DNA of 20,000 nt from an uncultured virus (IMG/VR IMGVR_UViG_3300048580_000371) (taxonomy: Duplodnaviria > Heunggongvirae > Uroviricota > Caudoviricetes), in the IMG/VR virus record IMGVR_UViG_3300048580_000371; one strand, written 5' to 3'. Positions 3-19,994 of this stretch are shown here, in pieces; within the stretch, counting starts at the first letter, position 1, and the number at the start of each line of letters is the position of its first letter. The notes beneath the pieces were generated by a model. That model had not been told where the DNA came from. It did not search any database and saw nothing but the letters and a program-made list of their open reading frames with translations. The translations under genes were made by a program, and so were the position numbers.

Positions 3-167
3 TACAAATTGGTATTATATGATGAAGTAGCAGAATTTTTAAAAAATAAAGATTTTTTTTGGTCAAGAGATATTGCATTAATAACCGCCCAAAATCATGG
101 TGTTAAATTTTGGTTTAAAAATTCAGATGATTTGATTTATTTTTTATTAAAATGGGGGAATAGATGA
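3..167 (+). CDS. Partial (5'-truncated) FKLxW-family small protein
   Basis: Open frame 3 from the window edge ending ...FWFKNSDDLIYFLLKWGNR*; TGA overlaps the next ATG (ATGA at 164-167). Confidence 0.75.
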   Translation, partial: YKLVLYDEVAEFLKNKDFFWSRDIALITAQNHGVKFWFKNSDDLIYFLLKWGNR

Positions 168-448
168 GTTGTCCATTTCAATTTTATAATCCTGCAACCA
201 ATCATGATGATGTGATAGATTGGTTGGAAGAAAATTATAAATTTAAATTTGAATTCAATTGTAAATCAAGTATTCACACTTGGTTATGGGAAAATTTTGG
301 GGATACAATTTTTGCAATGGAATCAAATGAAGATGGATATTGTAGAGTTATAAATCCATATGCAAAATGGGAGGTAATGGATGGTCATCTTTATATTAAA
401 GACGTTGATGATGCATTAATTTTTAAATTGAAATGGATAGAACAATGA
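164..448 (+). CDS. FKLxW-family hypothetical protein
   Basis: IDWLEEN helix; C-terminus DDALIFKLKWIEQ. Confidence 0.8.
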   Translation: MSCPFQFYNPATNHDDVIDWLEENYKFKFEFNCKSSIHTWLWENFGDTIFAMESNEDGYCRVINPYAKWEVMDGHLYIKDVDDALIFKLKWIEQ

Positions 449-690
449 CAGGTTTCAAACACACAAGGGTAATACCATATAAACACAACTTTGAATATAA
501 ACGAATGTCAAACAATCTATCCAATCAGGCAATGAAAATTTTTCTTGAAAAATTAGAAAATTGGGCTAAACATCATTTAAATGACGAATGGACATGGGAG
601 TTTGATACTTGGGGGAATTTTGTGTTTAAAATAAAAGAAGACAATGACGCTGTATTGTTTAAATTGAAATGGTGTGGTGATGAGCAGTAA
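445..690 (+). CDS. FKLxW-family hypothetical protein
   Basis: ATGA overlap at 445; ENWAKHH; ends DAVLFKLKWCGDEQ. Confidence 0.8.
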   Translation: MTGFKHTRVIPYKHNFEYKRMSNNLSNQAMKIFLEKLENWAKHHLNDEWTWEFDTWGNFVFKIKEDNDAVLFKLKWCGDEQ

Positions 691-925
691 AAAATCAGAT
701 TTTACAGTATTTCATGTCACCTTTAAAAATATTGATAGAACACAATCAAGTAGGGGATACTATACTGATGAATACCAAAATCAATATAAACAAATGGAAA
801 AATGGTGCAACGAAAATATAAATGAAAGATATTGGTTATTCGGGTCATCAGCTTGGGAGGAGTATGATTATGAATGTTGGATTCCACCAAAACATGCAGT
901 AATGTTTAAATTGAGGTGGTGTTAA
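680..925 (+). CDS. FKLxW-family hypothetical protein
   Basis: MEKWCNEN; ends HAVMFKLRWC; start could be 674 or 680. Confidence 0.8.
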   Translation: MSSKKSDFTVFHVTFKNIDRTQSSRGYYTDEYQNQYKQMEKWCNENINERYWLFGSSAWEEYDYECWIPPKHAVMFKLRWC

Positions 926-926
926 A

Positions 927-1202
927 ATGTCATGTATAATAGAAATAAAAATTAAAAATGATTTAAATACTATCAAAAATATTTTAAAAAATATTGTAAC
1001 CATCATTCCTTATAATAACTGGGGGTTTGGAACTGGTGAAACTATAACAGATGACACATTTACATATAATTTCAAAAACAGTTGGTTAGAATGGGCTAAA
1101 AATTCCCCAGATGTGATGTTTTCATCAACTACAAAATTTTGGTTTTATTTTTATTTTAAAACATCAAGTGATGCAATGCTGTTTAAATTGAGGTGTTTAT
1201 AG
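927..1202 (+). CDS. FKLxW-family hypothetical protein
   Basis: SD GAGGTG lies within the upstream motif; ends FYFKTSSDAMLFKLRCL. Confidence 0.8.
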   Translation: MSCIIEIKIKNDLNTIKNILKNIVTIIPYNNWGFGTGETITDDTFTYNFKNSWLEWAKNSPDVMFSSTTKFWFYFYFKTSSDAMLFKLRCL

Positions 1203-1519
1203 TGGACCAGATTATGGTTGGATATTATCAATCAGAAATATCATTTAATGAATTAAATGAGTTTTTTAAATTACACAATATAGACGACCCTTGTATTTTG
1301 GGCAATGTTATGATACTACCAAAACATTTAATTGATATATTTTGTGAAACATTTAGTATTGTTTTTTTTAATAAAATATCGGATGAAATGATAAAATGGT
1401 GTGAAGAAAATATAAAATCATTTTATTCCATTCATGGCGATGAAGAAACTTTGTCACAAAAATATATTTTGATTAAAGATAAAAATGAACATTTGTTGTT
1501 CAAACTTACGTGGGGATGA
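1202..1519 (+). CDS. FKLxW-family hypothetical protein
   Basis: GTG at 1202 after GAGGTG (alternative ATG 1214); MIKWCEEN; ends EHLLFKLTWG. Confidence 0.75.
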   Translation: MDQIMVGYYQSEISFNELNEFFKLHNIDDPCILGNVMILPKHLIDIFCETFSIVFFNKISDEMIKWCEENIKSFYSIHGDEETLSQKYILIKDKNEHLLFKLTWG

Positions 1520-1770
1520 ATATGACAATTGAATATATCAGATATAGTGATTTAAAAAACACCAGCTTGAGAAAAATTAATCAATGGCTGTTGGATAATA
1601 ATATTAAACACGCTTGGGTTGGGTGGAACCCATGTTTTGATAATGATATGTCAGATTTAGACATTGAACTCCAAATTGAATGGGGCATAATGTGTGGTGA
1701 TTATGAAGATGATCCAAAATTTATTGAATTATCAAGAAACGACTACATGCGATTTAAATTGACATTATGA
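1516..1770 (+). CDS. FKLxW-family hypothetical protein (DYMRFKL subtype)
   Basis: ATGA overlap; INQWLLDN, EWGIMCG, ends NDYMRFKLTL; close paralog of the next gene. Confidence 0.8.
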   Translation: MNMTIEYIRYSDLKNTSLRKINQWLLDNNIKHAWVGWNPCFDNDMSDLDIELQIEWGIMCGDYEDDPKFIELSRNDYMRFKLTL

Positions 1771-2000
1771 TTACAACAAAGGATATATGTGAACATGGGT
1801 CTGGGAATATTGTTCAATGGTTAGACGACAACCATATTGAATATTCTTGGGCGAAGGAGTTTGAATATTCTTGGGCGAAGGAGTTTGATCCATCTAAACA
1901 AACACTTGTACTTGAATGGGCAATTATGTCCGGTGGTTCAGATAGCATTGCCATTATAATTTCAAAAAATGACTATATGAGGTTCAAATTGGCATTTTAA
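1767..2000 (+). CDS. FKLxW-family hypothetical protein (DYMRFKL subtype)
   Basis: IVQWLDDN, EWAIMSG, ends NDYMRFKLAF. Confidence 0.8.
   Translation: MITTKDICEHGSGNIVQWLDDNHIEYSWAKEFEYSWAKEFDPSKQTLVLEWAIMSGGSDSIAIIISKNDYMRFKLAF
1837..1888 (+). repeat. Perfect 24-bp in-frame tandem duplication
   Basis: TTGAATATTCTTGGGCGAAGGAGT at 1837-1860 and 1861-1884 (+TTGA); protein EYSWAKEF x2. Confidence 0.95.
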
Positions 2001-2002
2001 TA

Positions 2003-2343: not shown

Positions 2344-2350
2344 TCGCTAT

Positions 2351-2384
2351 TATCCCCAGATTAATTTCTGGGGATAGTTTTCTT
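2351..2384 (+). terminator. Intrinsic terminator
   Basis: TATCC(C)CAGA-ttaatt-TCTGGGATA hairpin followed by GTTTTCTTT. Confidence 0.65.
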
Positions 2385-2674: not shown

Positions 2675-2694
2675 AGGATTACTCCTCTATTTTC
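2667..2694. terminator. Probable bidirectional terminator between convergent genes
   Basis: Perfect 12-bp inverted repeat GAAAATAGAGGA-ttac-TCCTCTATTTTC overlapping both stop codons. Confidence 0.65.
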
Positions 2695-3791
2695 AATATT
2701 CCCCTCTTATTTAATTCCTTGGCATAATATAATTTTTCTGGAAACCCTTTTGGTTTTTTAGGTGGATAAATTAATTCTGTTGGAACTGTATTAGATATTA
2801 TCCAAATATCAAATAATTGAACTAATAATTTTTCATTTTGTCGTCTAATGAGTTGTTTCTTTTTCATATTATTTTTTCGTTCATCTGATAATTTAATCCC
2901 AAGATGTGATTTTGACATTTTTTGTCTACGTTCTAATGGAACTGGGACACCATACGAAGGACTGTTTTCACCTGAAAATATTTCTGATAATTTTTTCTTT
3001 GTTTCTTCACTATGATGATGACCATAATGAGCAGCCAATTCACCTGTTTTTCCATAATTAGGGTTTTTTTCACCAGAAACTCTTTCTGATTGTTTTCGTT
3101 TAGTCTCATCAGAGTGTTTATATCCAAATAATGGATTATTTTCACCGGATCGTAACATTGACAATAGTTGTTTTGTTTCTTCTGAATGTTTAAAACCAAA
3201 CAGAGGATGTGCCTCACCTGTAACCCCAAACATTGGATGATTTTCACCTGAAAATATTTCTGATAATTTTTTCTTTGTTTCTTCACTATGATGTTGACCA
3301 TAATGAGCAGCCAATTCACCTGTTTTTCCATACCAATAAGCATTTTCACCTGAATTAGCTTTGTTATATTCAATTTTTATATTTTCAAATACAGAGGCTG
3401 TTATTTTATCAAATCGCTCTGTTCTTGAGCCATTAATAAAGGACCAAAGTGCCACCGTCATCATATTTTTAAATTTTTTATTATTAATCATTTTAACTAA
3501 TAAATGGTGAACAACAAAATGTTCTTTGGCTGACAAAAATACCAAATTATTTTTATCATTATTTCCACCAAACGAACTTGGGAGTATGTGATGATTTTCA
3601 ACATATCCCAATTTTTCCTTGGCTATTTTTCTATTTTTAAAATTTCTTATTTGTGCTTTTTTAATTATCCCTATATACCACTTGGCGTATTTTGATTTAT
3701 TGGACATTTTCCAAATTATATCTAAATAATCAATGTTGTTATCTGTTATAACATTATTTGTGCTTTGATAAATTATTAGATCATTATTCAT
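2679..3791 (-). CDS. Free-standing HNH homing endonuclease with NUMOD3 repeats
   Basis: ENHHILPSSFGGNNDKNNLVFLSAKEHFVVHHLL HNH motif; repeated HSEETKKKLS NUMOD3 motifs; start placed at 3791 by SD AAGGAG and alignment with the other two cassette copies. Confidence 0.9.
   Translation of the reverse strand: MNNDLIIYQSTNNVITDNNIDYLDIIWKMSNKSKYAKWYIGIIKKAQIRNFKNRKIAKEKLGYVENHHILPSSFGGNNDKNNLVFLSAKEHFVVHHLLVKMINNKKFKNMMTVALWSFINGSRTERFDKITASVFENIKIEYNKANSGENAYWYGKTGELAAHYGQHHSEETKKKLSEIFSGENHPMFGVTGEAHPLFGFKHSEETKQLLSMLRSGENNPLFGYKHSDETKRKQSERVSGEKNPNYGKTGELAAHYGHHHSEETKKKLSEIFSGENSPSYGVPVPLERRQKMSKSHLGIKLSDERKNNMKKKQLIRRQNEKLLVQLFDIWIISNTVPTELIYPPKKPKGFPEKLYYAKELNKRGILKIEE
2965..3332. repeat. 92-bp direct repeat inside the HNH gene (2965-3056 and 3241-3332)
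   Basis: One mismatch; 276-nt offset; encodes YGKTGELAAHYG(Q/H)HHSEETKKKLSEIFSGEN twice. Confidence 0.9.
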
Positions 3792-3970
3792 TTTGACATT
3801 TCTCCTTGGTTGTTGTATAAATAACATTGTAGCGGAAAGAGGCATCCTCCTTGGTGTCTGTTGATGGATACGCTAATATTCATCAACCCGCTATAATGTT
3901 ATTTATCTTTTTCTTTAAAATTTGTGTAATTTATTTTCATAAATATTGATTTTTCTTTCTCCATTGTTGT
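3789..3970. repeat. Endonuclease-associated intergenic cassette, copy 1
   Basis: Highly similar to 8500-8647 and 11049-11229: CATTTTGACATTTCTCCTTGG...TATAAATAACATTGTAGCGGAAAGAGG...CCGCTA. Confidence 0.95.
3824..3916 (+). ncRNA. Putative structured small RNA (three-way junction, CUCCUU loop), copy 1
   Basis: TATAAATA at 3816-3823; P1 3830-35/3888-93, P2 3840-46/3853-59, P3 3860-70/3877-87; U-rich tail; copy differences keep pairing through G-U only on the + strand. Confidence 0.6.
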
Positions 3971-4002: not shown

Positions 4003-5700
4003 ATGTATGTTGACGCAATTAAAGATAATGATACTATTTTGTTAGTAGAACGAGTTGATGAAGAACGGGTTTATAGAGAATTCCCTGTTGAATATTATTT
4101 TTATATTGAAAATCCCAAAGGGAAATATACAACCATTTTTGGGACCAAGGCAGAAAAAATTACATCTGCTAATGGAAAAAAATTTAGAGGTGATTTGGCT
4201 ATATATGATAACGAACGAAAATTCGAATCCGACATCAACCCAATATTCAAGTGCCTTGAAAAACATTATCGTGATTGCGAAAACCCAAAATTAAATGTGT
4301 GTTTTTTCGACATCGAAACAGATTTTGACCCGCAGCGCGGTTTTTCGAGTCCCGACGATCCTTTTGCACCCATTACAGCTATAACATGCTATCTCAATTG
4401 GGCAGACCAATTGATAACATTAGTATTACCACCACCAACTGTTTCAATGGATTTTGCCCAAAAAACTTGTACTGAATTTGAAAATACTTTTGTGTGTGAT
4501 TCAGAAGAACAACTTTTAGAAACGTTTTATGATGTAATTGAAGATGCAGATATTCTTTCAGGTTGGAACTCTGGATTTTATGATATTCCATATATCATCA
4601 GACGAACTGAAAAAATCCTTAATAAAGAACTCACAAGAAAGTTGTGTCTTTGGAATAAATTACCACTCAAAAAAGAAGTAGAACGTGGATGGGGAAAATC
4701 AACAACATTTGATCTTGTTGGAAGAGTCCATCTCGACTATCTTGATATCTATAAAAAACATACTTATTCAGAACAACCAAGTTATAAATTGGATTCAATT
4801 GGGTTTGTTGAAGTAGGCGAAACCAAAACCCAATATGAAGGGTCGTTGGATGATTTATATAAAAAGGACTTCAAGAAATTTATTGAATATAACAGGCAGG
4901 ACGTTATGCTCTTGGTAAAGATTGATAGAAAGTTAAAATTCATGGAATTGTCAAATCAGTTAGCCCACCAAAATAGTGTGACGCTAAAAACTACTTTAGG
5001 TTCTGTTGCCCTTATTGAACAGTCCATTGTGAATGAATCCCATGACCGTGGTATGGTTATGGCAGATCAAAAAACCAAAGAAGAGAATGATAAGCATTCA
5101 CTTATCATTTATGATAAAGCAGAACAGGAATACAAGAAATCAGTTGCAGGAGCTTACGTGGCAGAGCCTCAAGTTGGATTATCCCATTGGATAGGCAGCA
5201 TTGACATTAACTCTCTTTATCCATCTGTTATTAGAAGTCTAAACATGGGTCCAGAAACCATCGTTGCCCAAATTAGACAAGATGCTACCAAAAAATGCAT
5301 CACAGATAGATTTGAAGATCAACAAGGACCAGGACCGAAATATAAACAGGCAAGCATGGCAGACTGCTGGAACGGATTGTTTGGATGTTTGGAATATGAA
5401 GAAGTTATGAAGAAATCAGATAAAGAACTTATTCTTGATATGGAAAATGGCGATACTGTCACCATGAAAGCATGGGAAATTTACAATTTTATCTTTGAAC
5501 AAAATAATTCATATTGTCTATCAGCCAATGGAACCATATTCAGAACTGACGTTGAAGGAATTATTCCAGGTCTATTGCGCCGGTGGTATGATGAACGTGT
5601 TGAAATGAAAAACAAAGCCAAGGTGGCTGGGCAAAAAGCATCTGGGGTGGAGGTTAAAGATTCTTCATTGTTGGAACAATTAAAAATGTTGACTTCTTAA
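4003..5700 (+). CDS. polB: Family B DNA polymerase, N-terminal fragment A (3'-5' exonuclease, palm motif A, first fingers helix)
   Basis: ExoI FFDIETD, ExoII GWNSGFYDIPY, ExoIII YNRQDV, AGAYV, motif A DINSLYPSVI, SANG, GIIPGLLRRWYDER; ends before motif B. Confidence 0.95.
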   Translation: MYVDAIKDNDTILLVERVDEERVYREFPVEYYFYIENPKGKYTTIFGTKAEKITSANGKKFRGDLAIYDNERKFESDINPIFKCLEKHYRDCENPKLNVCFFDIETDFDPQRGFSSPDDPFAPITAITCYLNWADQLITLVLPPPTVSMDFAQKTCTEFENTFVCDSEEQLLETFYDVIEDADILSGWNSGFYDIPYIIRRTEKILNKELTRKLCLWNKLPLKKEVERGWGKSTTFDLVGRVHLDYLDIYKKHTYSEQPSYKLDSIGFVEVGETKTQYEGSLDDLYKKDFKKFIEYNRQDVMLLVKIDRKLKFMELSNQLAHQNSVTLKTTLGSVALIEQSIVNESHDRGMVMADQKTKEENDKHSLIIYDKAEQEYKKSVAGAYVAEPQVGLSHWIGSIDINSLYPSVIRSLNMGPETIVAQIRQDATKKCITDRFEDQQGPGPKYKQASMADCWNGLFGCLEYEEVMKKSDKELILDMENGDTVTMKAWEIYNFIFEQNNSYCLSANGTIFRTDVEGIIPGLLRRWYDERVEMKNKAKVAGQKASGVEVKDSSLLEQLKMLTS

Positions 5701-6787: not shown

Positions 6788-7363
6788 ATGGCAACACATG
6801 ATGTTTCGGGTAATCTTGGGTGTAGGAAATTTAATTTCGATATATTGGAAAAATTAATCCATATTTTTCCAAGCGAAAAACCAAATGTTACTGTTGGTAT
6901 TGAAACGTTAGATGGCACTATTAACTTTGAAAATGTTGAGGAATTTATTAAATATATTAATACTTTATCCAAACAATGTACCATCACTAAAATAAATGTT
7001 CATATTATTAATGAAAATTATGACAGGGTATATATTTGTTTTAATAGATTTGTAGGAACTTATTATTCTGTGTCAGCCAAAGACCCATTCTTGATGACTG
7101 AAACATCTAATAAAATTAAAGCGTTATTGCCAAAACATACCCCAATTTTACCACCATATATTACCTTTATATTGTTTGGTGTAATATTAGGCGCTTGTTT
7201 GGCATTGTCTTGGTGGTGGGCATATGGTATTATTTTTGGTATATGGATGATTGGTTTGAACCTTCTTGGCAAAAAATTCTTTACAAAGTATCCAATTTGG
7301 CCATTCAACAGCATTGATCTAAAGACCGATGCATTGTTGTTTAAATTGAAATATATTCCATGA
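6788..7363 (+). CDS. Membrane protein ending in the FKLxW-type motif
   Basis: Two TM segments then KTDALLFKLKYIP. Confidence 0.75.
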   Translation: MATHDVSGNLGCRKFNFDILEKLIHIFPSEKPNVTVGIETLDGTINFENVEEFIKYINTLSKQCTITKINVHIINENYDRVYICFNRFVGTYYSVSAKDPFLMTETSNKIKALLPKHTPILPPYITFILFGVILGACLALSWWWAYGIIFGIWMIGLNLLGKKFFTKYPIWPFNSIDLKTDALLFKLKYIP

Positions 7364-7632: not shown

Positions 7633-8502
7633 TTAATCTATATATCGTAAATCTAAATTTTTATACTTGGCTCCCTTTCCAGTAGGTTTGTGTGTCCCTT
7701 CCAAAATATTTTTTATAACATTATAACCAATTTTTAATTCAGAAGTTATTTCTTTTAAGGTATTCCATGATTTCACACACACCCCATCAACAAATAATCC
7801 AGCTTTAAATTTGAATTTAAGTTTATTAATTTCATTCATATCTAATTGTTCAACTTTATAATATCTAACATAATGATCTTTTACAAGCCAATGTTGAAAT
7901 TTAGATGCAGCCAATGATAAATTGGTGTGTCCAGTATTAAGAAACACTGCAGCACGATGAATACTAACAAATTCTTTTATAAATTTACCATTTTTATCAT
8001 AAATGCTTGTTTGTATTCTTGTTGGTTGGACTTCTGGTGAAATTTCTGCCATTCTTTGTTTTTCTTCTGGTGTCCACTTATGCCAATTTCTTCCCTTACT
8101 GGCTTCACCTATTAATTTTTTAGCTTCATCTGTATGTGTTTTTCCAAACATTCCATTGTCTGCTCCTATTCTTGCTGGAGGTCTATTGGAAATTCTGGCT
8201 ATATTTGTTAATATTCCAGTGTTATCTACCCGAAGTCCATATTTATAAATAAGAGTTTCTTCAAAATCATATGCGTCATTTTCATCTATAAACCCTTCTT
8301 TAATGATTTGTTCAATAGGTTCCAACCCTTGATTTAATAAATGTTTGATATAATTATCTTTAAATGAATTGTTTGATGAATTACCTCTTTTAACATCTTT
8401 AACGTGGCGTTTTATTCTGTCATTTTTTCCCTTACCAATATAAAAAGGTAAATTTGTTGTTGGGTCTATTAAAGCGTATACATAAAAATTTGTGTCTTTC
8501 AT
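7633..8502 (-). CDS. Free-standing GIY-YIG homing endonuclease with NUMOD3/NUMOD1-like domains
   Basis: FYVYALIDPTTNLPFYIGKG, RIKRH, E..LI..YG, LTN; GKTHTDEAKKLIG. Confidence 0.9.
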   Translation of the reverse strand: MKDTNFYVYALIDPTTNLPFYIGKGKNDRIKRHVKDVKRGNSSNNSFKDNYIKHLLNQGLEPIEQIIKEGFIDENDAYDFEETLIYKYGLRVDNTGILTNIARISNRPPARIGADNGMFGKTHTDEAKKLIGEASKGRNWHKWTPEEKQRMAEISPEVQPTRIQTSIYDKNGKFIKEFVSIHRAAVFLNTGHTNLSLAASKFQHWLVKDHYVRYYKVEQLDMNEINKLKFKFKAGLFVDGVCVKSWNTLKEITSELKIGYNVIKNILEGTHKPTGKGAKYKNLDLRYID

Positions 8503-11263: not shown

Positions 11264-13024
11264 ATGGCAGACTATAATCCAAAAGATTTAACCAAATTAA
11301 TCCAAGAAGGTGATGCTGGAAAGATAAAGGCATATATGGATGAATATGATTTGGTGTTATCTGGGAGTAAAATTGTCCCAAAATCTGATAAGGCAAAAGA
11401 GCATAAGGCTGAAGAAGCCTTTATGGATATGCGGCAGCACAGTCGTAAAATCTTGTTAAATTCGTAAATATTGCGACTTCATGCAGTGATGTATGTCGAA
11501 AAACCCCTTTAACTGCTGGAAACTCTGACCGTGAAAGACGAAGACAATCAGCAGCCAAGCCCTTGAAAAAGGGAAGGTTCAACGACCAGAGAGAAATCTC
11601 GTAGACCCAAGTGGGTCGAAATGGGGGGTATCCTGTAAATCAGGATAGTGATATGGTCTATTCTTTATGGAAACATAAAGCAGCGAAAGCGGGATAAGAG
11701 TAACGACCTTATTCGAATATCAAGTATATGGTGCCTAAAAATTGGGCCATTAATTAGTAATAATTAATTGAAAACCCCTTTAATTGCTGGAAACTCTGAC
11801 CGTGAAAGACGAAGACAATCAGCAGCCAAGCGAAAAGAAATTTTCGAAGGTTCAACGACTATGCGAAAGCAGTAGGTCCAAGTGGATCGAAATGGGGGGT
11901 ATCCTGAAATTTGTCAGGATAGTGATATAGTCTTTTCTTTATGGAAACATAAAGCTGCGAAAGCGGGATAAGAGTAACGACCTTATTTGAAAATTAAAGT
12001 GTTGAACGAAAATATGAGAAATTATGATCCAAGAATTGGCTCCAGCGTTACTATGACTGGAAGGTGTATCTCTCGTCATATGGCTGGTGTTGTGAATGAT
12101 ATTATCTGTGGTGTAAAGGATCATCGTGGGGAATCAATTATATATGGTGATTCTGTGCATGAACGAACAATAATCAATACTAATATGGGATTGTTTACTA
12201 TTGGGCAATTATATGATTATTGTAGTAATAAATGGGAAGAACGTGGAAAATATTTTAGTTCGGATGATACCATAAAGGTTTTATCATATAATCCTGAAAC
12301 AAAACAACCAGAATATTATCCAATCAATCATGTGATTAAACATTGGACAGAAAAAGAAATGTTTGAAATTCGTGATACAAGGAGAATAGAACCAAATGTT
12401 GCAAACACAAATTTTGTTATTGTGACTGCTGATCATTCATTAATGATTGAACGAAATGGTGATTTGGTAAAAATAAAACCAACTGATATATTACCAACAG
12501 ATGTTTTAATTGGTTTGGCTGATGATAATAAAGATGGACAACGTATAGTTTATAAAAGCACTTGTGAAATAAAATCATTGGGTATTGTGCCACAGAATGT
12601 TTATGATATATCAATTAAATCTGATGATAAAAGTAGGCATACGTTTTTTGGAAACAACATTTTATTAAAAAATACAGATTCTGTTAAATGGAATAGTAAA
12701 ATTGATACAAAAACAGGTGAAACATCAATTGAAAATTTATTTCAGACCTGTGAAAAGAAATGGGTTGATGGCGAGAAGGAATATGCTTGGTCTGATGTAA
12801 AGATTAAAGCATTTGATGGTAAGACCAAGAAAGCCAAATACATGCCTGTAAATTATATTTATCGTCATAAAGTATCAAAAGACCAATGGGTTATTAAAGC
12901 AGAAACAGGACAAGAAGTAATAACTACCGGTGACCACTCTATTATGGTTGAACGAAATAAAGAAATTATTGAAGTAAAACCAATTGAAATAAAACCTGAT
13001 GATTTATTGATAATAAATGGGTAA
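11264..13024 (+). CDS. polB: Family B DNA polymerase fragment B precursor: join(11264..11465,11725..11736,12000..13024), 412 aa including inteins
   Basis: Splicing restores motif B RQHSRKILLNSLYGALLNENMRNYDPRIGSSVTMTGR; removing intein 1 gives IIYGDTD (motif C). Confidence 0.92.
11466..11724 (+). ncRNA. Group I intron 1 (259 nt, no ORF)
   Basis: Exon ends in U with P1 TCGT/GCGA U-G pair; P AACTGCTGGAA, Q AATCAGCAG, R TCAACGACCA, S GATATGGTCT; terminal G 11724; splicing restores the frame. Confidence 0.92.
11737..11999 (+). ncRNA. Group I intron 2 (263 nt, no ORF)
   Basis: P1 GCCT/GGGC with U-G; P AATTGCTGGAA, Q AATCAGCAG, R TCAACGACTA, S GATATAGTCT; terminal G 11999; splicing restores the frame. 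Confidence 0.92.
12152..12673 (+). mobile_element. Cis mini-intein (174 aa) at YGD|TD
   Basis: Starts with Ser (SVHERT), block B VTADHSL, block F VYDISI, ends HTFFGNNILLKN with +1 Thr; no endonuclease domain. Confidence 0.9.
12680..13021 (+). mobile_element. N-terminal half of a split intein (114 aa) at YGDTD|
   Basis: Starts SVKWNSKI, block B TTGDHSI, ends IKPDDLLIING* with no block F/G; paralogous to intein 1. Confidence 0.85.
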
Positions 13025-13038
13025 TTTTTAAACAAATT

Positions 13039-13089: not shown

Positions 13090-13090
13090 A

Positions 13091-14122
13091 ATGGTTGGAT
13101 TTAGAAAAGAAGAATTTTATATAAAAAAATTTGGTGAAGAAAAAGGCAAGGATGAATATCAACGAGTATTAATAGCTCGTGATAAAAGACAATCACGACT
13201 GGACACAGGTAGAGGGGTTGAATATAAAGTTTATACTGAAGAAGATGTTTTAAATGGTGATGCTATTAAATGTCAATGTTGTGGTTATATAACATCGAGA
13301 TTACAATGGACCCACTTTAAATATAAATGTATTATTAAAACGTCAGAAGAATATTTAGAAAAATATCCATTGGCATTAATAGTGGCACCAAATTTAAGCA
13401 AAAAAACATCAATGACTTTAGAAAATATGATTGAGCTTCATGGCGAAATAAATGGAAAAATTAAATGGGAACAATATTGTTTAAAGCAAGCAGAAACTAA
13501 TTCATTTGAATATAAAGCAGAAAAATATAATATATCAGAAGACGATTTTAAAAAATATAATAAATCAAGAGCTGTAACATTAGAAAATTTAATAAAAAAA
13601 CATGGGGAAGACGAAGGATTAAAAAAATGGAATGATTATTGTGATAGACAAAAATATACTTGTTCATTAGAATATTTTATTGAAGAATATGGGGAAGATG
13701 AAGGATTAAATCGTTATACTTATTGGCATGAAAAAAGAGTTTGTAATGGTAATGGTGGAATTTCTGACGCAGAAGAAATTGTATTTGATATATTAGATAA
13801 TTATATTGGGGAAAACGTTAGACAATTAGTTTTAAAACATGATACCATTGATAAACATTATAGATATGATTATGCCAATGTAGAAAAAAGAAAAATAATT
13901 GAATTTAATGGAACTTATTGGCACTGTGATCCAAGAAAATATGTTGAGGATTATATTCATACCAAAACAAAATTAACAGCTGGACAAATATGGGCGAGAG
14001 ATGAGGATAAAATTAATTGTGCCAAACGTCTTGGGTATGATATTATGATTATATGGGAAAAAGACTGGAATACAAATCAAGAAAAAATTATATCTGATGT
14101 TGTATCATGGTGGAATAGATAA
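13091..14122 (+). CDS. Free-standing Vsr-like (EDxHD-type) endonuclease with zinc finger and repeated YGE(D/E)EG-like units
   Basis: CQCCG...THFKYKC; repeats FGEEKG/HGEDEG/YGEDEG; SDAEE, YDY...IIEFNGTYWHCDP, RDEDK, GYDIMIIWEKDW. Confidence 0.85.
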   Translation: MVGFRKEEFYIKKFGEEKGKDEYQRVLIARDKRQSRLDTGRGVEYKVYTEEDVLNGDAIKCQCCGYITSRLQWTHFKYKCIIKTSEEYLEKYPLALIVAPNLSKKTSMTLENMIELHGEINGKIKWEQYCLKQAETNSFEYKAEKYNISEDDFKKYNKSRAVTLENLIKKHGEDEGLKKWNDYCDRQKYTCSLEYFIEEYGEDEGLNRYTYWHEKRVCNGNGGISDAEEIVFDILDNYIGENVRQLVLKHDTIDKHYRYDYANVEKRKIIEFNGTYWHCDPRKYVEDYIHTKTKLTAGQIWARDEDKINCAKRLGYDIMIIWEKDWNTNQEKIISDVVSWWNR

Positions 14123-14136
14123 TAAATGGGTGATTA

Positions 14137-14382
14137 ATGACCGCAATATGTTCTGACAACAATGATTATAGGAAGATAATAACCAATAAGGTTATAAGGG
14201 AAACACTTGATAAATTATTTAATTATTATGATTTAGGTCCAAATAATAGTATACAATCCATATTATCTTTTGTATTTTTACGGACAAGGACAAGACGAAA
14301 TCGCAACAAAGAATTAATATCACAATATAATTTGGTGTTAAAGATGACTTATCCGGATTTATATGATGGATTTAAATTATGA
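14137..14382 (+). CDS. Hypothetical protein
   Basis: 81 aa; ends DGFKL with ATGA coupling (possibly a degenerate motif). Confidence 0.6.
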   Translation: MTAICSDNNDYRKIITNKVIRETLDKLFNYYDLGPNNSIQSILSFVFLRTRTRRNRNKELISQYNLVLKMTYPDLYDGFKL

Positions 14383-14684
14383 GTAGGTGCTTTATTGATT
14401 GGGTGGGGAATGAACATTGGGAACGAGATTCTGACGATGATGGTCCACAATTAGTCAATCAACATTATTCCATGTGGTATAGGAATTATAAAATCCCACC
14501 TGCCCCACCTTCTGGGATTGCCCATAGAGAAAATGGACCAGCTATAATTTATAAAAATTGCAATTTAAAGAAGTTTTGTTTAGATGCTGAAGAATATACA
14601 TTAAAGGAATATATTGACGAATTAATCAAACGTGGTAAGATAAAATCTGAAGATGCATTGGTGTGTTATTTGAAATGGAGTTAG
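14379..14684 (+). CDS. Hypothetical protein with HRENGPA repeat unit and FKLxW-type end
   Basis: AHRENGPAIIY; ends EDALVCYLKWS. Confidence 0.75.
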   Translation: MSRCFIDWVGNEHWERDSDDDGPQLVNQHYSMWYRNYKIPPAPPSGIAHRENGPAIIYKNCNLKKFCLDAEEYTLKEYIDELIKRGKIKSEDALVCYLKWS

Positions 14685-14685
14685 A

Positions 14686-14976
14686 ATGGACAATGGAGTG
14701 AAATCATATCATGTAACTGGTGATTGGGAAGTATTTCGTGTCCCTGTGCCAAAATATATGGAGTGTGAAATATTATATGATGCGATATGGACATGGTGTG
14801 CTGATAAATTGGAAGGTCCATTTAAAGTATTCAATGTTTCTTATGGGTCATCAAAATCTTTTTATAAAAATGGTAAACCAAGCAAAACATTAGAAACACT
14901 TGCATATAGGGAATTAGTTCAGGTTGATATTCAAAGAAAATCAGATGCTATTTTGTTTAAATTAAAGTGGGGGTAA
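14686..14976 (+). CDS. FKLxW-family hypothetical protein
   Basis: IWTWCADK; ends RKSDAILFKLKWG. Confidence 0.8.
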   Translation: MDNGVKSYHVTGDWEVFRVPVPKYMECEILYDAIWTWCADKLEGPFKVFNVSYGSSKSFYKNGKPSKTLETLAYRELVQVDIQRKSDAILFKLKWG

Positions 14977-14978
14977 TA

Positions 14979-15305
14979 ATGTATTATGAAGTATGTTATC
15001 ATAGATTTGCAGGAAAAATAATTCAATCACCATATGAAAATGGTTATCAAATGTCCAGAGAAGAATTTTCTGTTGGTTGTCATTCTACCAATCCATACCA
15101 TTGGACGACAAATCGTTGGGTATTTGAACGTTTAATTTGGTGTAAGGAAAATAATTTAAAATTGGCTGGATTTGACACACAAGCTTATATTAAAAGTTAT
15201 GAAGGACACGAATATAAACCAATTAGAGGTTCATTAATTACTGTATTAGAATTTAGGTTCATTAGAAAATCAGATGCATTATTTTTCAAATTAAAGTGGA
15301 GTTGA
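14979..15305 (+). CDS. FKLxW-family hypothetical protein
   Basis: LIWCKEN; ends RKSDALFFKLKWS. Confidence 0.8.
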   Translation: MYYEVCYHRFAGKIIQSPYENGYQMSREEFSVGCHSTNPYHWTTNRWVFERLIWCKENNLKLAGFDTQAYIKSYEGHEYKPIRGSLITVLEFRFIRKSDALFFKLKWS

Positions 15306-15306
15306 C

Positions 15307-15858
15307 ATGAAATTAACATTGAGTGATGATTTAAGGGAAACACTAAAAACGTCAACGTCAGATATTCAATCTGGGGAAGGTAGTTTGTATTATTATTCTT
15401 CACAAATTTGTGATGCAAGAGAAATGTTAGTATATACTTATATTTGGATGACACTAAAAAAGTATTCATTTGATGATTTTAAAATAATGGTTCAAATGGA
15501 CCCATTTATCCCTATTCAAGATATTAGAAATAGTACTAAATATGTTGTTGTGTTTTTTAATGAAGAAAAATATTTATCATTTGTGGAAACAATAAAAATA
15601 ATTAACGTTGGGACAATGTTCCCTGTATTATCCAATATAGGAAATTGTATTCCTGTTGAATATCCATTAATGGATTACAGTAGTTTTTCCGGCATACCAT
15701 TTGCAGCTGGTGATTCTGAATTTCAAGTATCGCAACATATTATAGATATATTTTGTTGGATGGTAGAAAATTGTCAAGGGAAATATTATCGTTATGGTAA
15801 ATTTTTCTTTTTTGAAACATCAGAAGATGCAATGTTATTTAAATTGAAGTGGAGTTGA
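15307..15858 (+). CDS. FKLxW-family hypothetical protein (long form)
   Basis: FCWMVENCQGKY; ends FFFETSEDAMLFKLKWS. Confidence 0.8.
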   Translation: MKLTLSDDLRETLKTSTSDIQSGEGSLYYYSSQICDAREMLVYTYIWMTLKKYSFDDFKIMVQMDPFIPIQDIRNSTKYVVVFFNEEKYLSFVETIKIINVGTMFPVLSNIGNCIPVEYPLMDYSSFSGIPFAAGDSEFQVSQHIIDIFCWMVENCQGKYYRYGKFFFFETSEDAMLFKLKWS

Positions 15859-15860
15859 TA

Positions 15861-16247
15861 ATGGAAGAATTATTTTTTGAATATGGTGTGTTTTTTAAAG
15901 TCACAGATACAGGGCTTGCCCCAATGGAAGAAATAAAATCATTTAATGAATCATTTTATAATTTATGGAAATCAATTTATGATTGTAAAAATTATAAAAA
16001 TTATGGTGAAAAAGATTGGGAAGTGGTTTTAGTTGAAAACCATTATCAAAAATACTCCCAAAAGAAATGTTCGGTGTTTTGTATGGAAAAATGTACAGGT
16101 GGCTGGGCAACGAGAAATTATTATATCACAAATGGTTCAGATGATATTGATTGTGAAGAATTTAAAAAAACTTTTAAATCTGGCATTGCATATTATTTTG
16201 AAAAACCTGAAGATGCTATATTATTTAAATTATCAATGGAGGCTTGA
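15861..16247 (+). CDS. FKLxW-family hypothetical protein
   Basis: FCMEKCTGGW; ends YFEKPEDAILFKLSMEA. Confidence 0.8.
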   Translation: MEELFFEYGVFFKVTDTGLAPMEEIKSFNESFYNLWKSIYDCKNYKNYGEKDWEVVLVENHYQKYSQKKCSVFCMEKCTGGWATRNYYITNGSDDIDCEEFKKTFKSGIAYYFEKPEDAILFKLSMEA

Positions 16248-16248
16248 C

Positions 16249-16410
16249 TTGTTAAAATGGTTAAAAAGATTAATTGTTGGTTGCGACCATGATTTTGCTA
16301 TTATTAATAGCGTAGCAACAAGAAAAATTGGTGGTTATTTATATAATCAAGAACCAAAGAAAATTTTCTTTTGTAAGAAATGTGGTAAAAAGAAGGAGAC
16401 ATGGGGATAA
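16249..16410 (+). CDS. Small zinc-ribbon-like phage protein
   Basis: SD GGAGG 16238, TTG start; GCDH...CKKCG. Confidence 0.6.
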   Translation: MLKWLKRLIVGCDHDFAIINSVATRKIGGYLYNQEPKKIFFCKKCGKKKETWG

Positions 16411-16721
16411 TGTTAAGGATGCATGGACATGGTTTTCCTGTTTTAACACCAAACTTACCTGAAGGTTATATAGAAAATCCAGGTTGGTATGATGATAATG
16501 TTCTTGAATATACTTTTAGTGGAAATTGGACTGAGTTAACATTTCGCAATGAAGGCAGTTTCACTCTTTATTGGGATAAGTTTGAAGATGCTGAAAATTG
16601 GATTCAAAATAATATTCAAAATTGGCAAGAAAATGCTTGTTGGATTCGGATCAATGATTGTTCGTATTTTTATTTCAAACATTCCAGTGACGCCATGTTA
16701 TTTAAATTGAGGTGGTTATGA
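16410..16721 (+). CDS. FKLxW-family hypothetical protein
   Basis: ENWIQNN; ends FYFKHSSDAMLFKLRWL. Confidence 0.8.
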   Translation: MLRMHGHGFPVLTPNLPEGYIENPGWYDDNVLEYTFSGNWTELTFRNEGSFTLYWDKFEDAENWIQNNIQNWQENACWIRINDCSYFYFKHSSDAMLFKLRWL

Positions 16722-17011
16722 TTATTCATTCATCGCTTGGTGTTTATGATGAAGAAACAATAGATGAATATTTGTTTGATGATCAGGAACATTATCGTCA
16801 AACATTGTATTATTATTATCGTTTGGATAGAAATTTTGAATCAATAAAAATTAGACAATGGTTAGATGATAATAAAATTCCTTATGTAATAGGATGGACT
16901 AAAATTGAAAAGTTACCAAATCCAGGTGAACTTTACAAGTATTCAATTAGATGTTATTTGAAAATATTGCATAAAAAAGATTTCCTAATATGTAAATTGA
17001 GGTGGTTATGA
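16718..17011 (+). CDS. FKLxW-family hypothetical protein
   Basis: IRQWLDDN; ends KKDFLICKLRWL. Confidence 0.8.
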   Translation: MIIHSSLGVYDEETIDEYLFDDQEHYRQTLYYYYRLDRNFESIKIRQWLDDNKIPYVIGWTKIEKLPNPGELYKYSIRCYLKILHKKDFLICKLRWL

Positions 17012-17232
17012 CACATTTTAAAACAAATATAAATTGGATAGATAGATTATTACAAAATGGAGTTGTGGTTATTATATCTCAGTCCAATTATGAAAAAGCT
17101 TTTAATTGGGCAGGGAAAAACATTGAAAATTTTAAATGGTTAGCAATGAACACAATGACCAAAGTACCAAATTATCATTTTTATTTTGAAAATCCCAATG
17201 ATGCAATGATATTTAAATTGAAATGGAGATAA
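17008..17232 (+). CDS. FKLxW-family hypothetical protein
   Basis: FNWAGKN; ends FYFENPNDAMIFKLKWR. Confidence 0.8.
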   Translation: MTHFKTNINWIDRLLQNGVVVIISQSNYEKAFNWAGKNIENFKWLAMNTMTKVPNYHFYFENPNDAMIFKLKWR

Positions 17233-17233
17233 A

Positions 17234-17794
17234 ATGGAAGAAGAATGGGAAACAGAGCCTGATTTTAAAGAAGGAAAATATCTTGGTTACAGTTATAATA
17301 TTAAACGCCATCCAGAGATGAAGCATCTTTGTGGATATGTTGTCGTGCCAAAATCCCATATGTTATATAGGGATGAAAATGTGTGTGAACGTATTATTAA
17401 TTGTCATGGTGGGATTACCTATACAGGTATTGATACAGGGAAGTGGGCAATTGGATTTGACTGTGCCCATTCAGGGGACAAATCACCAAGTCTTGCACAT
17501 TTTTTAAAAAACAGCCCTTATGATAATCCTTATGATAGTGGTGTATATCGTAATATTGAATATGTTGAAAGAGAATGTTATGATATTATTGTACAATTAA
17601 AACAATTGTCTGGCTTTAAATATTATGATATGAGTGGTTATTCATCCAATGATGTTGATGATAAAATTCAGTGGTGCATGGAAAATTGTCGTGGGCAATG
17701 GAAATTTTTGGAAGATTTTTATAATATTATAGTTTTTAAAAACAAACAAGATTTTATGTTTTATCGTTTAAGATGGGGGGTTGGAAATGACTAA
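17234..17794 (+). CDS. Fusion of a CGYV/HGGITY/GFDCAH phage domain to an FKLxW domain
   Basis: HLCGYV, CHGGITY, IGFDCAH then IQWCMENCRGQW...QDFMFYRLRWG. Confidence 0.8.
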   Translation: MEEEWETEPDFKEGKYLGYSYNIKRHPEMKHLCGYVVVPKSHMLYRDENVCERIINCHGGITYTGIDTGKWAIGFDCAHSGDKSPSLAHFLKNSPYDNPYDSGVYRNIEYVERECYDIIVQLKQLSGFKYYDMSGYSSNDVDDKIQWCMENCRGQWKFLEDFYNIIVFKNKQDFMFYRLRWGVGND

Positions 17795-18044
17795 CACCAT
17801 ATTAATAGATTTTATCGATAAAAAATATGAATATGATAAATTTTGGTGGGCATTTTATGTAGATGGAGAAACTGGCTTACCATATTATGACCTTGACACC
17901 AGCTTATTAACTTGGTTGAAGAAAAAAGAAACAATTCATTATATATATTTGACTGCAGACAGGCACAGAAGTCATTTAAGCGGCGTTGAATTTCATTTTG
18001 ACAATAAAGAAGACATGTTATTATTTAAATTACAATGGTTATAG
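17787..18044 (+). CDS. FKLxW-family hypothetical protein
   Basis: LTWLKKK; ends FHFDNKEDMLLFKLQWL. Confidence 0.8.
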   Translation: MTNTILIDFIDKKYEYDKFWWAFYVDGETGLPYYDLDTSLLTWLKKKETIHYIYLTADRHRSHLSGVEFHFDNKEDMLLFKLQWL

Positions 18045-18052
18045 GAGAAAAT

Positions 18053-18283
18053 ATGAATAAGATATTATTAAATAATAATTGTTTTGACTATTCATTTCAA
18101 AATGGTTTTTCCATACACAATGAAGTATTTGAATGGTTAAAAGAAAATAACATCAAATATTTACAAATAACAGACTATATACCTGTTGAAAATAAACCAA
18201 ATTGTTGGGCAGGATTAATATGGTTAGGATTTCAAAACAGAAACGACGCAATGCGTTTTAAATTAAGGTGGGGTGGACAATGA
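18053..18283 (+). CDS. FKLxW-family hypothetical protein
   Basis: SD AGGAG; FEWLKEN; ends NDAMRFKLRWGGQ. Confidence 0.8.
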   Translation: MNKILLNNNCFDYSFQNGFSIHNEVFEWLKENNIKYLQITDYIPVENKPNCWAGLIWLGFQNRNDAMRFKLRWGGQ

Positions 18284-18702
18284 TTAAATATGTAGCTGGG
18301 TTTATTTTTTCGCCAGAACGAGATAGGGTTCTTCTTATTAGGAAAAATCGTCCTGATTTTCAGGCTGGAAAATTAAATGGTATTGGTGGTAAAGTTGAAC
18401 AAGATGAAACATATCTTCAAGCCATGATGCGTGAAACATATGAAGAATCTGGTTTGATAATACACGAATGGACAAATTTCGCAATATTAAATCATCAAAA
18501 CTATTGTATCCATTTTTATATGTCAATATCAGACTACTATTGTGATTTTTTTAATAAAACAGATGAAAAAATTGAAATACACATTGTTAATCAATTATCA
18601 ATTAGAAATGATTTAATGAATCATATTAGATGGTTGGTCCCACTATCTTTAAATACAGACATCAAATTTCCAATTGAATATACAGATATAGGGGTGAATT
18701 AA
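18280..18702 (+). CDS. Nudix (MutT-like) hydrolase
   Basis: Nudix box GGKVEQDETYLQAMMRETYEESGL. Confidence 0.92.
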   Translation: MIKYVAGFIFSPERDRVLLIRKNRPDFQAGKLNGIGGKVEQDETYLQAMMRETYEESGLIIHEWTNFAILNHQNYCIHFYMSISDYYCDFFNKTDEKIEIHIVNQLSIRNDLMNHIRWLVPLSLNTDIKFPIEYTDIGVN

Positions 18703-18711
18703 AACTGTAAA

Positions 18712-19053
18712 ATGGTTTGTAATTGTGAATTTTGTACTATTTTTAGGCGTGTTAAAGATAATCCATATCCTGCAGAAGGAGACATGAATAATTTGTCTTG
18801 GATAGAGGAATTAGAATTAGAAGATATGTTGAAAGCTTGGTATGTTAGAGTTTTTGTTGATGAATTAAAATTTAGAGAAAATGAAGATATGATTAATGAT
18901 TGGTTAGAAGATAATTGTAAGTGTGAATATGATATTCAAGATTTTATATCACAGAAAAACTGTGGAACCATGATAACATTTTTTTATAATAGGAATGATA
19001 ATGGTGAACAAGCTAAAAAAGATGCAGTGTTGTTTAAATTAAAGTGGGGTTAA
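18712..19053 (+). CDS. FKLxW-family hypothetical protein
   Basis: INDWLEDNCKCEY; ends KKDAVLFKLKWG. Confidence 0.8.
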   Translation: MVCNCEFCTIFRRVKDNPYPAEGDMNNLSWIEELELEDMLKAWYVRVFVDELKFRENEDMINDWLEDNCKCEYDIQDFISQKNCGTMITFFYNRNDNGEQAKKDAVLFKLKWG

Positions 19054-19054
19054 A

Positions 19055-19375
19055 ATGAAAGAGATTTTTATGTTTGGATATGCCAATAAATTATATCAAA
19101 AATATAATTACAAAGATTGTGTCACCGGTCAAAAATATCCCCAAGATAGAAAAATCGTTGGTGGAAAGAAATTCTTTTTACCATGGAAAAATACTTGGAA
19201 AGGTGGTTTTCAAATCAGAGATGGTTGTACAACAGAAACAACAAAATATGTTAAAGAATTAAAACAATATGCCAAACATCGTTGGGAATTGACTTGTGAT
19301 GAATATTATGATCGAGTATTGGTGAATTTTATGGACAACAGGGATTTATTATTTTTTAAATTGAGGTGGGGATGA
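19055..19375 (+). CDS. FKLxW-family hypothetical protein
   Basis: Ends NRDLLFFKLRWG. Confidence 0.8.
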   Translation: MKEIFMFGYANKLYQKYNYKDCVTGQKYPQDRKIVGGKKFFLPWKNTWKGGFQIRDGCTTETTKYVKELKQYAKHRWELTCDEYYDRVLVNFMDNRDLLFFKLRWG

Positions 19376-19644
19376 TTTCTTATACCTACAACGATTTTGT
19401 CAATAATACTACCTATTTTAGACCAGGTACTGTTGAGCGTATGCGTTGTTATATGTTATGCAAGGAGAGTGGCTGGTTCCCAGAAATTATTTTTGTATTT
19501 GGTGGAAAAGATTCGACCATTATAATAGCTGATATGATACAATGGTGCAAAGAAAATTGTAAAGGGAAATGGGCGTTTGAAAATTGGTATATTAAATTTG
19601 AAACATCCAATGATGGAATGTTATTTAAAATGAGATGGGGATAA
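19372..19644 (+). CDS. FKLxW-family hypothetical protein
   Basis: MIQWCKENCKGKW; ends SNDGMLFKMRWG. Confidence 0.8.
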   Translation: MISYTYNDFVNNTTYFRPGTVERMRCYMLCKESGWFPEIIFVFGGKDSTIIIADMIQWCKENCKGKWAFENWYIKFETSNDGMLFKMRWG

Positions 19645-19646
19645 AC

Positions 19647-19994
19647 GTGGCTATAAATTATAACACACTTAAAGCAAGCATTAATAATTCTAATACTATC
19701 CAGATTAGTAATTTTAAATATTCAATTGAACCAAAGGTTGAATTTTGTATAGAATATCAACAATGGCTTTACACGCTTGTTAATACAATGAATGAAAAAA
19801 TTAAAATTGATGATTGGATTAAAAATTATTTACAACCAAAAACAGTTATAATTTTGAAACAACATTCAGATATGGAGATATTAAAAAATTGGGCAACAGA
19901 ACATGCTAAAGGAAAATATTGTATTTATTCCACTAATATTGTAATATTTGAAGACAACCAAGATGCAATAATGGTAAAGTTAAAATGGAGTTAA
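19647..19994 (+). CDS. FKLxW-family hypothetical protein
   Basis: Probable GTG start; KNWATEHAKGKY; ends NQDAIMVKLKWS. Confidence 0.8.
   Translation: MAINYNTLKASINNSNTIQISNFKYSIEPKVEFCIEYQQWLYTLVNTMNEKIKIDDWIKNYLQPKTVIILKQHSDMEILKNWATEHAKGKYCIYSTNIVIFEDNQDAIMVKLKWS

Follow-up and report, generated by a model that had tools for sequence, protein, structure and literature searches.

Introduction

Families of clustered, diverged paralogues are known from several large viruses. The MGF110, MGF360 and MGF505 families of African swine fever virus (ASFV) and the ankyrin or Bcl-2-like families of poxviruses vary in number among strains and are thought to counter host defences. The plastic regions of phage T4 carry small early genes whose products inhibit host proteins and are mostly unrelated to one another, while the tandem polyimmunity arrays of bacteria (SUKH and Imm families) are cellular, encode proteins of about 120–150 amino acids (aa) and have Pfam models. 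In jumbo phages, a zinc-ribbon expansion of about 35 copies in Bacillus phage G is called unprecedented in passages of the survey by Iyer et al. 2021 (PMC7824862). Here we describe a family of small phage genes that share a C-terminal module ending in variants of D-A-x-x-F-K-L-[KR]-W, 25 of which lie in a stretch of 20,000 nucleotides (nt) from an uncultured virus of the Caudoviricetes (IMG/VR record IMGVR_UViG_3300048580_000371), and we call this whole stretch the window.

The family shares something with each of these systems and is identical to none. It resembles the phage G zinc ribbons, as those passages present them, in that a very small domain has undergone lineage-specific expansion in a jumbo phage and its function is likewise only conjectural, but the present module is a helix-strand-strand-helix unit without a metal-binding Cys/His pattern, it occurs in many phages rather than one, and it reaches 51–87 and about 206 copies per genome, the last of these being five to six times the phage G number. 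Clustered, diverged paralogues of variable number recall the ASFV and poxvirus families, from which the present one is set apart by its fold, its size and the domain of its hosts; the sequences are unrelated, and a role in host range would be a supposition here. Tight rows of small non-virion genes between replication genes are also seen in the T4 plastic regions, but T4 has no copy of the module (0 matches) and its small genes, as noted, are for the most part not kin to each other. Polyimmunity arrays are similarly rows of divergent small paralogues of a single fold, each with a different partner, but they are cellular and unrelated to the present family, and the module was absent from cellular genomes in a pattern scan. 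Virus multigene families of the takeover or counter-defence type are marked by clustered paralogues, by turnover between relatives and by a phenotype on host range or defence; clustering and turnover were found here, and the family may work like them. Virus multigene families as such are already known, and what is new is one built on an undescribed module: a literature search returned no description of the family, and none occurs in passages of the papers on Atu_ph07, AP-J-162 and PA5oct (PMC6102473, PMC11242549, PMC7318152).

Results

The array in the window

All 25 genes of the original prediction are in the list of open reading frames (ORFs) at the positions it gave, every one on the plus strand, with eight in 3–2000, two in 6788–7632 and 15 in 14379–19994 (Table 1); they make up over half of the approximately 43 ORFs of the window. 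Alignments bear out the common end that it described, D-A-x-x-F-K-L-[KR]-W after an F-x-F strand and a W-x3-N helix, and show 0–5 further residues behind it. The N-terminal regions are unrelated, as had been noticed, with no pair similar at E<0.01 in an all-against-all blastp comparison. To avoid circularity, a hidden Markov model (HMM) was built from 94 modules of other viral contigs with the window excluded; applied to the 343 stop-to-stop ORFs of the window, this external profile matched 23 of the 25 genes (E 5e-14 to 1.2e-3), and it matched nothing at E<=0.01 in 20 shuffled sets (20 x 343, or 6,860 ORFs). Given the 23 matches, the empty shuffled sets and the unrelated N-termini, the array stands as real, and the proposed constant module of about 45–50 aa with variable N-termini is supported by both the alignments and the external profile. 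The two genes that the profile missed are treated as weak members because only the last helix is present in them. A full-length, 99-aa version of the first gene exists in the protein database, on a 78,627-bp contig, confirming that the array continues past the left edge of the window.

Neighbouring family genes overlap by 4–17 nt or leave 1-nt gaps, and the third block is broken only by a NUDIX gene and by a 153-nt gap at 16248–16400. Gene junctions are mostly ATGA or TAAnATG, which suggests translational coupling, so that the array genes are probably translated as coupled rows. The idea that the ATG of each next gene is formed from the K-W codons of the module was rejected, being true only at 433, 18035 and 19635, with ordinary ATGA/TAAnATG overlaps mostly found elsewhere. 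A terminator-like hairpin of good quality follows the first block and one more gene. The single gap of the third block holds a small frame with a zinc-ribbon-like CDH...CKKC pattern, which ends in ...ETWG, overlaps the start of the next family gene and is itself no family member.

As the original prediction had it, the module has no assigned function: Pfam, PHROGs, NCBIfam and the PDB yielded nothing for it. The modules of the 25 window members had 0 matches in Pfam-A or PHROGs v4, the 33 outside representatives scanned at E<=1 had no family in common, nine members from cultured phages matched no PHROG, and nine members (seven from the window and two outside representatives) had 0 matches in NCBIfam 20. 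Profiles A2 and A3 reached best E-values of only 0.17 and 0.44 against PDB sequences, a search in which a query this short has little power. The 25 genes belong to a phage-specific multigene family outside the curated libraries. The only recognisable fusion is gene 19, the first 125 residues of which match phrog_2164 (function unassigned), with a weaker match to a MazG-like PHROG; this domain is free-standing in phages elsewhere, and in gene 19 it had no match among PDB sequences. Among 22 longer fused forms from elsewhere there was no Pfam domain and one weak PHROG match.

Size and spread of the family

The family is far larger than had been guessed, with 1171 representatives and up to about 206 copies per genome. 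The representatives, each standing for a cluster at 50% identity, were those found at E<=1e-3 in an exhaustive profile search of 1.84 billion cluster representatives; they are mostly 50–190 aa long and some contain two modules. In the stored hits a median of 1 residue separates the end of the module from the C-terminus, and about 90% of members have the module at their very C-terminal end. A DNA pattern of the last nine residues was found in 78 stretches of IMG/VR, many on contigs of 300–600 kb, and a profile built from the window matched 77 of 83 sources (the window and 82 loci), with up to 15 members per 6 kb. The same nine-residue pattern in 596 Gb of bacterial and archaeal genomes gave 12 chance-like stretches, none with a full module, and the family is phage-restricted. 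A word-indexed protein search returned 0 matches at its 'longer' lengths and 10 at 'near', mostly the window's own proteins. A metagenome scan with the last gene gave one doubtful match of 19 residues (locus L084), in whose 20 kb the profile found no module.

Copy number differs greatly among whole records (Table 2), with 87 and 77 in the uncultured jumbo phages G003 and G004. The highest was in the 561-kb genome G002, where a tiled profile scan detected 208 module ORFs at E<=0.01 among 10,515 stop-to-stop ORFs and 0 in the shuffled set; the count is taken as about 206 because two of the 208 are tile duplicates. This is about 23% of the ORFs of that genome by a crude count (910 non-overlapping ORFs of >=50 aa), and the members stand in runs of 30, 28, 25 and 13. 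G002 has 48% G+C compared with approximately 30% in the window, and the family therefore spans phages of very different composition.

Table 2. Matches of the A3 profile in whole phage records
Record	Size	Matches	Threshold
G001 (fragment)	154 kb	39	E<=0.01
G003	417 kb	87	E<=0.01
G004	462 kb	77	E<=0.01
Sinorhizobium phage Phosso	469 kb, 735 annotated features	51	E<=0.01
G002	561 kb	at least 149	E<=0.01
G006	608 kb	35	E<=1e-5
G007	480 kb	28	E<=1e-5
G008	425 kb	19	E<=1e-5
G009	344 kb	12	E<=1e-5
G010	317 kb	8	E<=1e-5
Atu_ph07	490 kb	6, of which 3 strong	E<=0.01
PA5oct	287 kb	3	E<=0.01
Vibrio phage 2.275.O	349 kb	1, marginal	E<=0.01
G005	306 kb	0	E<=0.01
T4, KVP40, RaK2, P-SSM2	169–346 kb	0 each	E<=0.01
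Bacillus phage G	498 kb	1, marginal, within a 2014-aa frame	E<=0.01

The module as a mini-domain

The constant part is predicted to be a mini-domain of about 41–50 residues, in the order helix, strand, strand, helix, that would fold autonomously. Helix 1 bears W-C/L-x-E-N, strand 1 begins at a conserved W, strand 2 is F-x-F, and helix 2 is the D-A-x-x-F-K-L-[KR]-W segment, which is nearly always the end of the protein; what varies is the N-terminal extension and a hairpin insert of 0 to about 60 residues. AlphaFold2, given A3, an alignment of 116 sequences, modelled the 41-residue module of gene 24 with a pLDDT of 93.9 (helices at 2–13 and 30–40, strands at 18–21 and 24–27), and in the full 90-residue protein the module again exceeded 90 while the first 45 residues were uncertain (mean pLDDT 69.4). 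The existence of proteins of 47–53 residues that are little beyond the module indicates that it folds by itself. The columns W, D, A, F, K, L and W hardly vary, and all of them but the K would fit a small hydrophobic core and helix caps, as would the conserved set W, W, F, F, L and W with N/G and D-A at the helix ends. The Cys of WCxENC is exchanged for L, I or V in many members. Prediction of a homodimer from two copies of the module scored 0.21 against a mark of 0.42.

A shared predicted fold, one of the checks that the original prediction had suggested, is supported by these models and by matches in BFVD, all of which are uncharacterised phage proteins, including ones of PA5oct and Atu_ph07 (TM by query 0.75–0.89, E>=0.04). 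The nearest clusters in the ESM Atlas are all viral hypothetical proteins without Pfam families, and Foldseek against the PDB gave no match at E<=0.001, a search with little power for 41 residues. VIA-align against 48,161 chains had a best Z of 4.4, to the helix-strand-strand-helix unit of KH, RRM, ACT, SMC-hinge and secretion-ring domains. The local topology is the same as in the KH, RRM, ACT and ring-building domains (rmsd 1.6–2.4 A over 39–41 residues), but Z is only 3.2–4.4, there is no sequence signal, and those domains have extra strands or helices; the likeness is a common arrangement, not relationship or membership. The type I KH domain is beta-alpha-alpha-beta-beta-alpha with a GXXG loop between two helices, and a KH identity was rejected on the single helix before the hairpin, the lack of a conserved GXXG and the lack of a Pfam KH match. 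Likewise the dsRBD-like fold, which includes HicA, is alpha-beta-beta-beta-alpha with three strands, whereas minimal members of the present family are two-stranded and the Pfam dsrm and HicA models were unmatched. A zinc ribbon of the phage G type, with two CxxC/H pairs, was also set aside, there being no conserved Cys/His pairs in the module.

The modules are mostly acidic, with a median isoelectric point (pI) of 5.6 and 83 of 116 below 7 (for entire window proteins the values run from 4.5 to 9.6), and given this the module would not be expected to be a general nucleic-acid binder. Few proteins have transmembrane (TM)-like segments (one among the 25 window members, three among 159 stored proteins and two among 208 G002 ORFs), and the family proteins are by prediction mostly soluble.

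Divergence among relatives

Array content was expected to vary among related phages, and it does: across six related loci of 6 kb, orthologues at 45–99% identity exist for most members, but 3 of the 11 members of one locus have none in the other five. In 67 reciprocal-best pairs, which share loci and hence are not independent, mean identity was 47% in the N-terminus compared with 63% in the module, and the N-terminus was the lower of the two in 55 of 67. Every paralogue therefore retains its own N-terminus, which changes faster than the module. The hairpin also varies. Protein P0014, an orthologue from a near relative, is 85% identical to gene 18, and 7 of its 11 differences fall in the hairpin loop, including a three-residue deletion; in gene 8 the hairpin insert has EYSWAKEF in an internal tandem duplication (1837–1890), and contigs from two other lake-water runs have an 18-nt gap in the same insert. 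Apparent gain and loss of genes in contigs of approximately 200–460 nt from four lake-water runs was rejected, as the sides of the joints were under 30 nt.

Virion proteomes

The original prediction also proposed sorting into the virion, and this found no support, with 0 of 3 PA5oct and 0 of 4 mapped Atu_ph07 members in published virion proteomes. Neither gp209, gp210 nor gp237 of PA5oct bears in its record the note of virion detection by electrospray tandem mass spectrometry (ESI-MS/MS) that neighbouring genes bear. Of Atu_ph07, gp232, gp234, gp255 and gp258 are missing from the published virion table S5, which includes the adjacent nudix protein gp257 and many proteins of 9–15 kDa; the numbering of the table agrees with that of the Atu_ph07 record, since the polymerase is 276/277 in both. 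Capsid-targeted internal proteins (IP) of the T4 type have a common N-terminal targeting leader and are found in virions. The comparison with them was rejected, the N-termini here being unrelated and 0 of 7 members from relatives occurring in virion proteomes.

The phage and the genes around the arrays

The window, with approximately 30% G+C, looks like a piece of a large phage of the T4 superfamily. Its family-B DNA polymerase is, in the first part, at most 47% identical to the polymerases of Sinorhizobium phage Phosso, Agrobacterium phage Atu_ph07 and Pseudomonas phage PA5oct. There were 0 nucleotide matches to the window among 50,697 phage records; its proteins are present in the protein database, where they derive from the contig of 78,627 bp. 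In PA5oct, Atu_ph07 and Phosso the members are located among nucleotide-metabolism and replication genes, specifically near MazG-like, NUDIX, thymidylate synthase, dCMP deaminase and GroES genes at 90.7–102.9 kb of Phosso (L083) and 182–200.5 kb of Atu_ph07 (L146). A member stands immediately upstream of a NUDIX gene both in the window (gene 21) and in Atu_ph07 (gp258, then gp257). Between the arrays of the window lies a gene for a metallo-beta-lactamase-fold protein of the anti-Pycsar Apyc1 family, probably a cyclic-nucleotide-degrading counter-defence gene to judge from its sequence. It is the sole pointer from context, and a hint only, on the docking or counter-defence roles that had been suggested for the array.

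The polymerase gene itself is fragmented. Its first part holds the exonuclease and the beginning of the polymerase domain, and the remainder (11264–14122) follows about 5.5 kb away, with other genes, two family members and the Apyc1 gene between. This second region has a short exon-like ORF, two group I introns (Rfam RF00028) and an ORF with an intein splicing domain, downstream of which a 343-aa ORF has no family match. Three or four genes are homing-endonuclease-like, one with five NUMOD3 motifs, another with GIY-YIG and NUMOD1/3 and a third with a restriction-endonuclease-like C-terminus, and the mobile-element load around the polymerase is very high.

Table 1. Family genes and other features of the window (E-values are those of the external profile unless another is named)
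Feature	Position	Strand	Evidence
Family gene 1, cut by the 5' end of the window (full form 99 aa, P0009)	3..167	+	E 4.5e-6
Family gene 2, 94 aa, long insert between the two strands	164..448	+	E 1.7e-11
Family gene 3; database record P0032 begins at ATG 445	433..690	+	E 2.4e-7
Family gene 4, 83 aa	674..925	+	E 1.9e-6
Family gene 5, 91 aa, end FKLRCL	927..1202	+	E 3.4e-6
Family gene 6, 108 aa from GTG; ATG at 1214	1193..1519	+	E 2.5e-12
Family gene 7, end RFKLTL; ATGA start 1516 fits P0004; 41% identity to gene 8	1510..1770	+	E 1.2e-3
Family gene 8, end RFKLAF	1767..2000	+	E 2.8e-4
Terminator-like hairpin	2349..2378
Homing-endonuclease-like gene	2679..3845	-
Family-B DNA polymerase, first part	4003..5700
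Weak member (gene 9), 191 aa, hydrophobic TM-like segments, only a DALLFKLKY tail	6788..7363	+	neither profile matches at E<0.01
Family gene 10, 90 aa	7360..7632	+	E 7.1e-8
Homing-endonuclease-like gene	7633..8502	-
Apyc1 family protein, 271 aa	8682..9497	+	PF23023, 99.2 bits (cut-off 50)
Homing-endonuclease-like gene	10125..11051	-
Short exon-like ORF, end KILLNS	11264..11467
Group I intron	11437..11680		RF00028, 89 bits
Group I intron	11726..11954		RF00028, 98 bits
ORF with intein splicing domain	11987..13024
Possible homing-endonuclease-like gene	13091..14122	+
Weak member (gene 11), 101 aa, only an EDALVCYLKWS tail	14379..14684	+	self-inclusive profile only; external profile misses
Family gene 12, 96 aa	14686..14976	+	E 8.4e-8
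Family gene 13, 112 aa from GTG; ATG at 14979	14967..15305	+	E 1.2e-10
Family gene 14, 183 aa; 142-aa N-terminal part without Pfam match, no known family	15307..15858	+	E 1.4e-13
Family gene 15, end FKLSMEA	15849..16247	+	E 6.1e-10
Small frame, about 53 aa, zinc-ribbon-like	16249..16410	+
Family gene 16, 106 aa	16401..16721	+	E 4.9e-10
Family gene 17, ATGA start 16718	16712..17011	+	E 1.3e-4
Family gene 18, ATGA start 17008	17002..17232	+	E 5e-13
Family gene 19, 186 aa, phrog_2164 domain fused to module	17234..17794	+	E 8.4e-12; phrog_2164 E 3.8e-29
phrog_2164 domain of gene 19, pattern CHGGITYTG ... GFDCAHSGD	17234..17647	+
Family gene 20; database record P0010 begins at 17787	17781..18044	+	E 8.9e-8
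Family gene 21, immediately upstream of the NUDIX gene	18035..18283	+	E 4.3e-10
NUDIX gene	18268..18702
Family gene 22, 113 aa	18712..19053	+	E 1.6e-7
Family gene 23, 106 aa	19055..19375	+	E 1e-5
Family gene 24, ATGA start 19372 = P0001, 90 aa; modelled protein	19366..19644	+	E 5.3e-14
Family gene 25, 119 aa, P0005; stop 6 nt before the window end	19635..19994	+	E 6.3e-10

Discussion

The reading that we tentatively favour, at something short of an even chance, is that the array encodes binders with individual targets, a repertoire used in host takeover or counter-defence, and that these combine a constant scaffold with variable surfaces. The module would be a stable scaffold on which each paralogue displays a surface of its own, and the array would supply a set of small, soluble, non-virion proteins, produced from tight and probably translationally coupled gene rows amid replication and nucleotide-metabolism genes. 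Each protein would bind a different host or competitor target and so contribute to takeover of the host or to counter-defence. In favour of this reading are the profile-supported family with its modelled fold, the predicted solubility, the restriction to phages, the lack of members in the virion proteomes, the paralogue-specific N-termini, the strain-level changes in the hairpin and the gene context. One pole of the modelled module may carry the N-terminal extension together with the hairpin insert and the C-terminus, and it is this placement, together with the constant scaffold and the variable surfaces, that makes us prefer a repertoire of target binders. Several points weigh against it. The placement at one pole is deduced from topology only, and the orthologue comparison has the dependence among pairs mentioned above. 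That small proteins are missing from virion mass spectrometry is weak evidence, and the data concern distant relatives of the window's phage. The near-invariant K of helix 2 and the [KR] two residues on are probably exposed and could mark a common ligand. Binding, targets, biological role and, with a promoter scan of the window at chance (139 sites compared with 129 expected), the time of expression are inferred. A broader form of the same idea is possible but on balance doubtful: a germline repertoire of binders on a 45-residue scaffold, with tens to approximately 200 paralogues per genome that would neutralise many host defence and housekeeping proteins, that may be a main reason for the growth of this clade to 300–600 kb, and that would amount to a natural library of small protein inhibitors.

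The conserved K/[KR] and the strict C-terminal position make docking the main rival, although we consider it rather unlikely. The module would then bind one common phage or host partner, such as a chaperone, a protease, a polymerase or a part of the replisome, and the variable N-termini would be cargo or substrates. The two basic residues are not obviously part of the core, which would suit a docking surface, as would the position of the module at the very end of about nine in ten members, the fusion of an otherwise free-standing phrog_2164 domain to it in one window member and the occurrence of two-module proteins. Yet the fold alone accounts for most of the conserved columns, most members have just 60–110 aa and are cramped for cargo, the 22 longer fused forms are without a recognisable enzyme or cargo domain, and the common partner is a supposition. 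Alternatively, the module could be a minimal KH-, RRM- or dsRBD-like unit that binds nucleic acid, with the paralogues as gene-specific regulators or as RNA/DNA chaperones, as proposed for the phage G zinc ribbons. This we regard as improbable: the best structural matches, though weak, do include KH and RRM (Z 4.4 to 3.5), helix 2 has its two conserved basic residues, and the genes stand amid replication and nucleotide-metabolism genes, but Z<=4.4 is noise level for a VIA-align search, and the module has two strands only, no GXXG loop, a mostly acidic composition and no match to the Pfam KH, RRM or dsrm models.

Two further explanations are less likely. A functionless expansion, in which tandem duplication proceeds through a conserved 3' DNA word and the copies drift neutrally, could draw on a near-repeat (TTTAAAYTRARRTGG-like) formed in most window copies by the module's final 15 nt, which might drive unequal exchange. 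The frames, however, are open (4 of 150 had a stop among the matches listed), orthologues are retained across related phages down to 45% identity, and core residues are conserved between genomes of 30% and 48% GC, making neutral drift very improbable in our judgement. Scarcely credible, and the least probable of the explanations considered, is that the proteins are packaged in the virion and injected along with the DNA: none of the seven mapped members is in the two published virion proteomes, and there is no common N-terminal leader, as follows from the unrelated N-termini.

Jumbo phages are rich in small genes without known function, and here one uncurated mini-domain accounts for over half of the ORFs of the window, for about a quarter of those of the 561-kb phage and for 51 of 735 annotated features in the cultured phage Phosso. 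The expansion surpasses the case of about 35 copies that passages of the 2021 survey (PMC7824862) termed unprecedented, and with the family named, hundreds of hypothetical proteins in each genome become a single tractable question. Phosso, Atu_ph07 and PA5oct are available as cultured systems, and the minimal members of 47–53 residues are suited to nuclear magnetic resonance (NMR). If the proteins dock on one partner, that partner would be a hub of jumbo-phage biology; if they are target-specific inhibitors, the arrays would be a ready library of small binders as well as a record of the conflict between these phages and their hosts.

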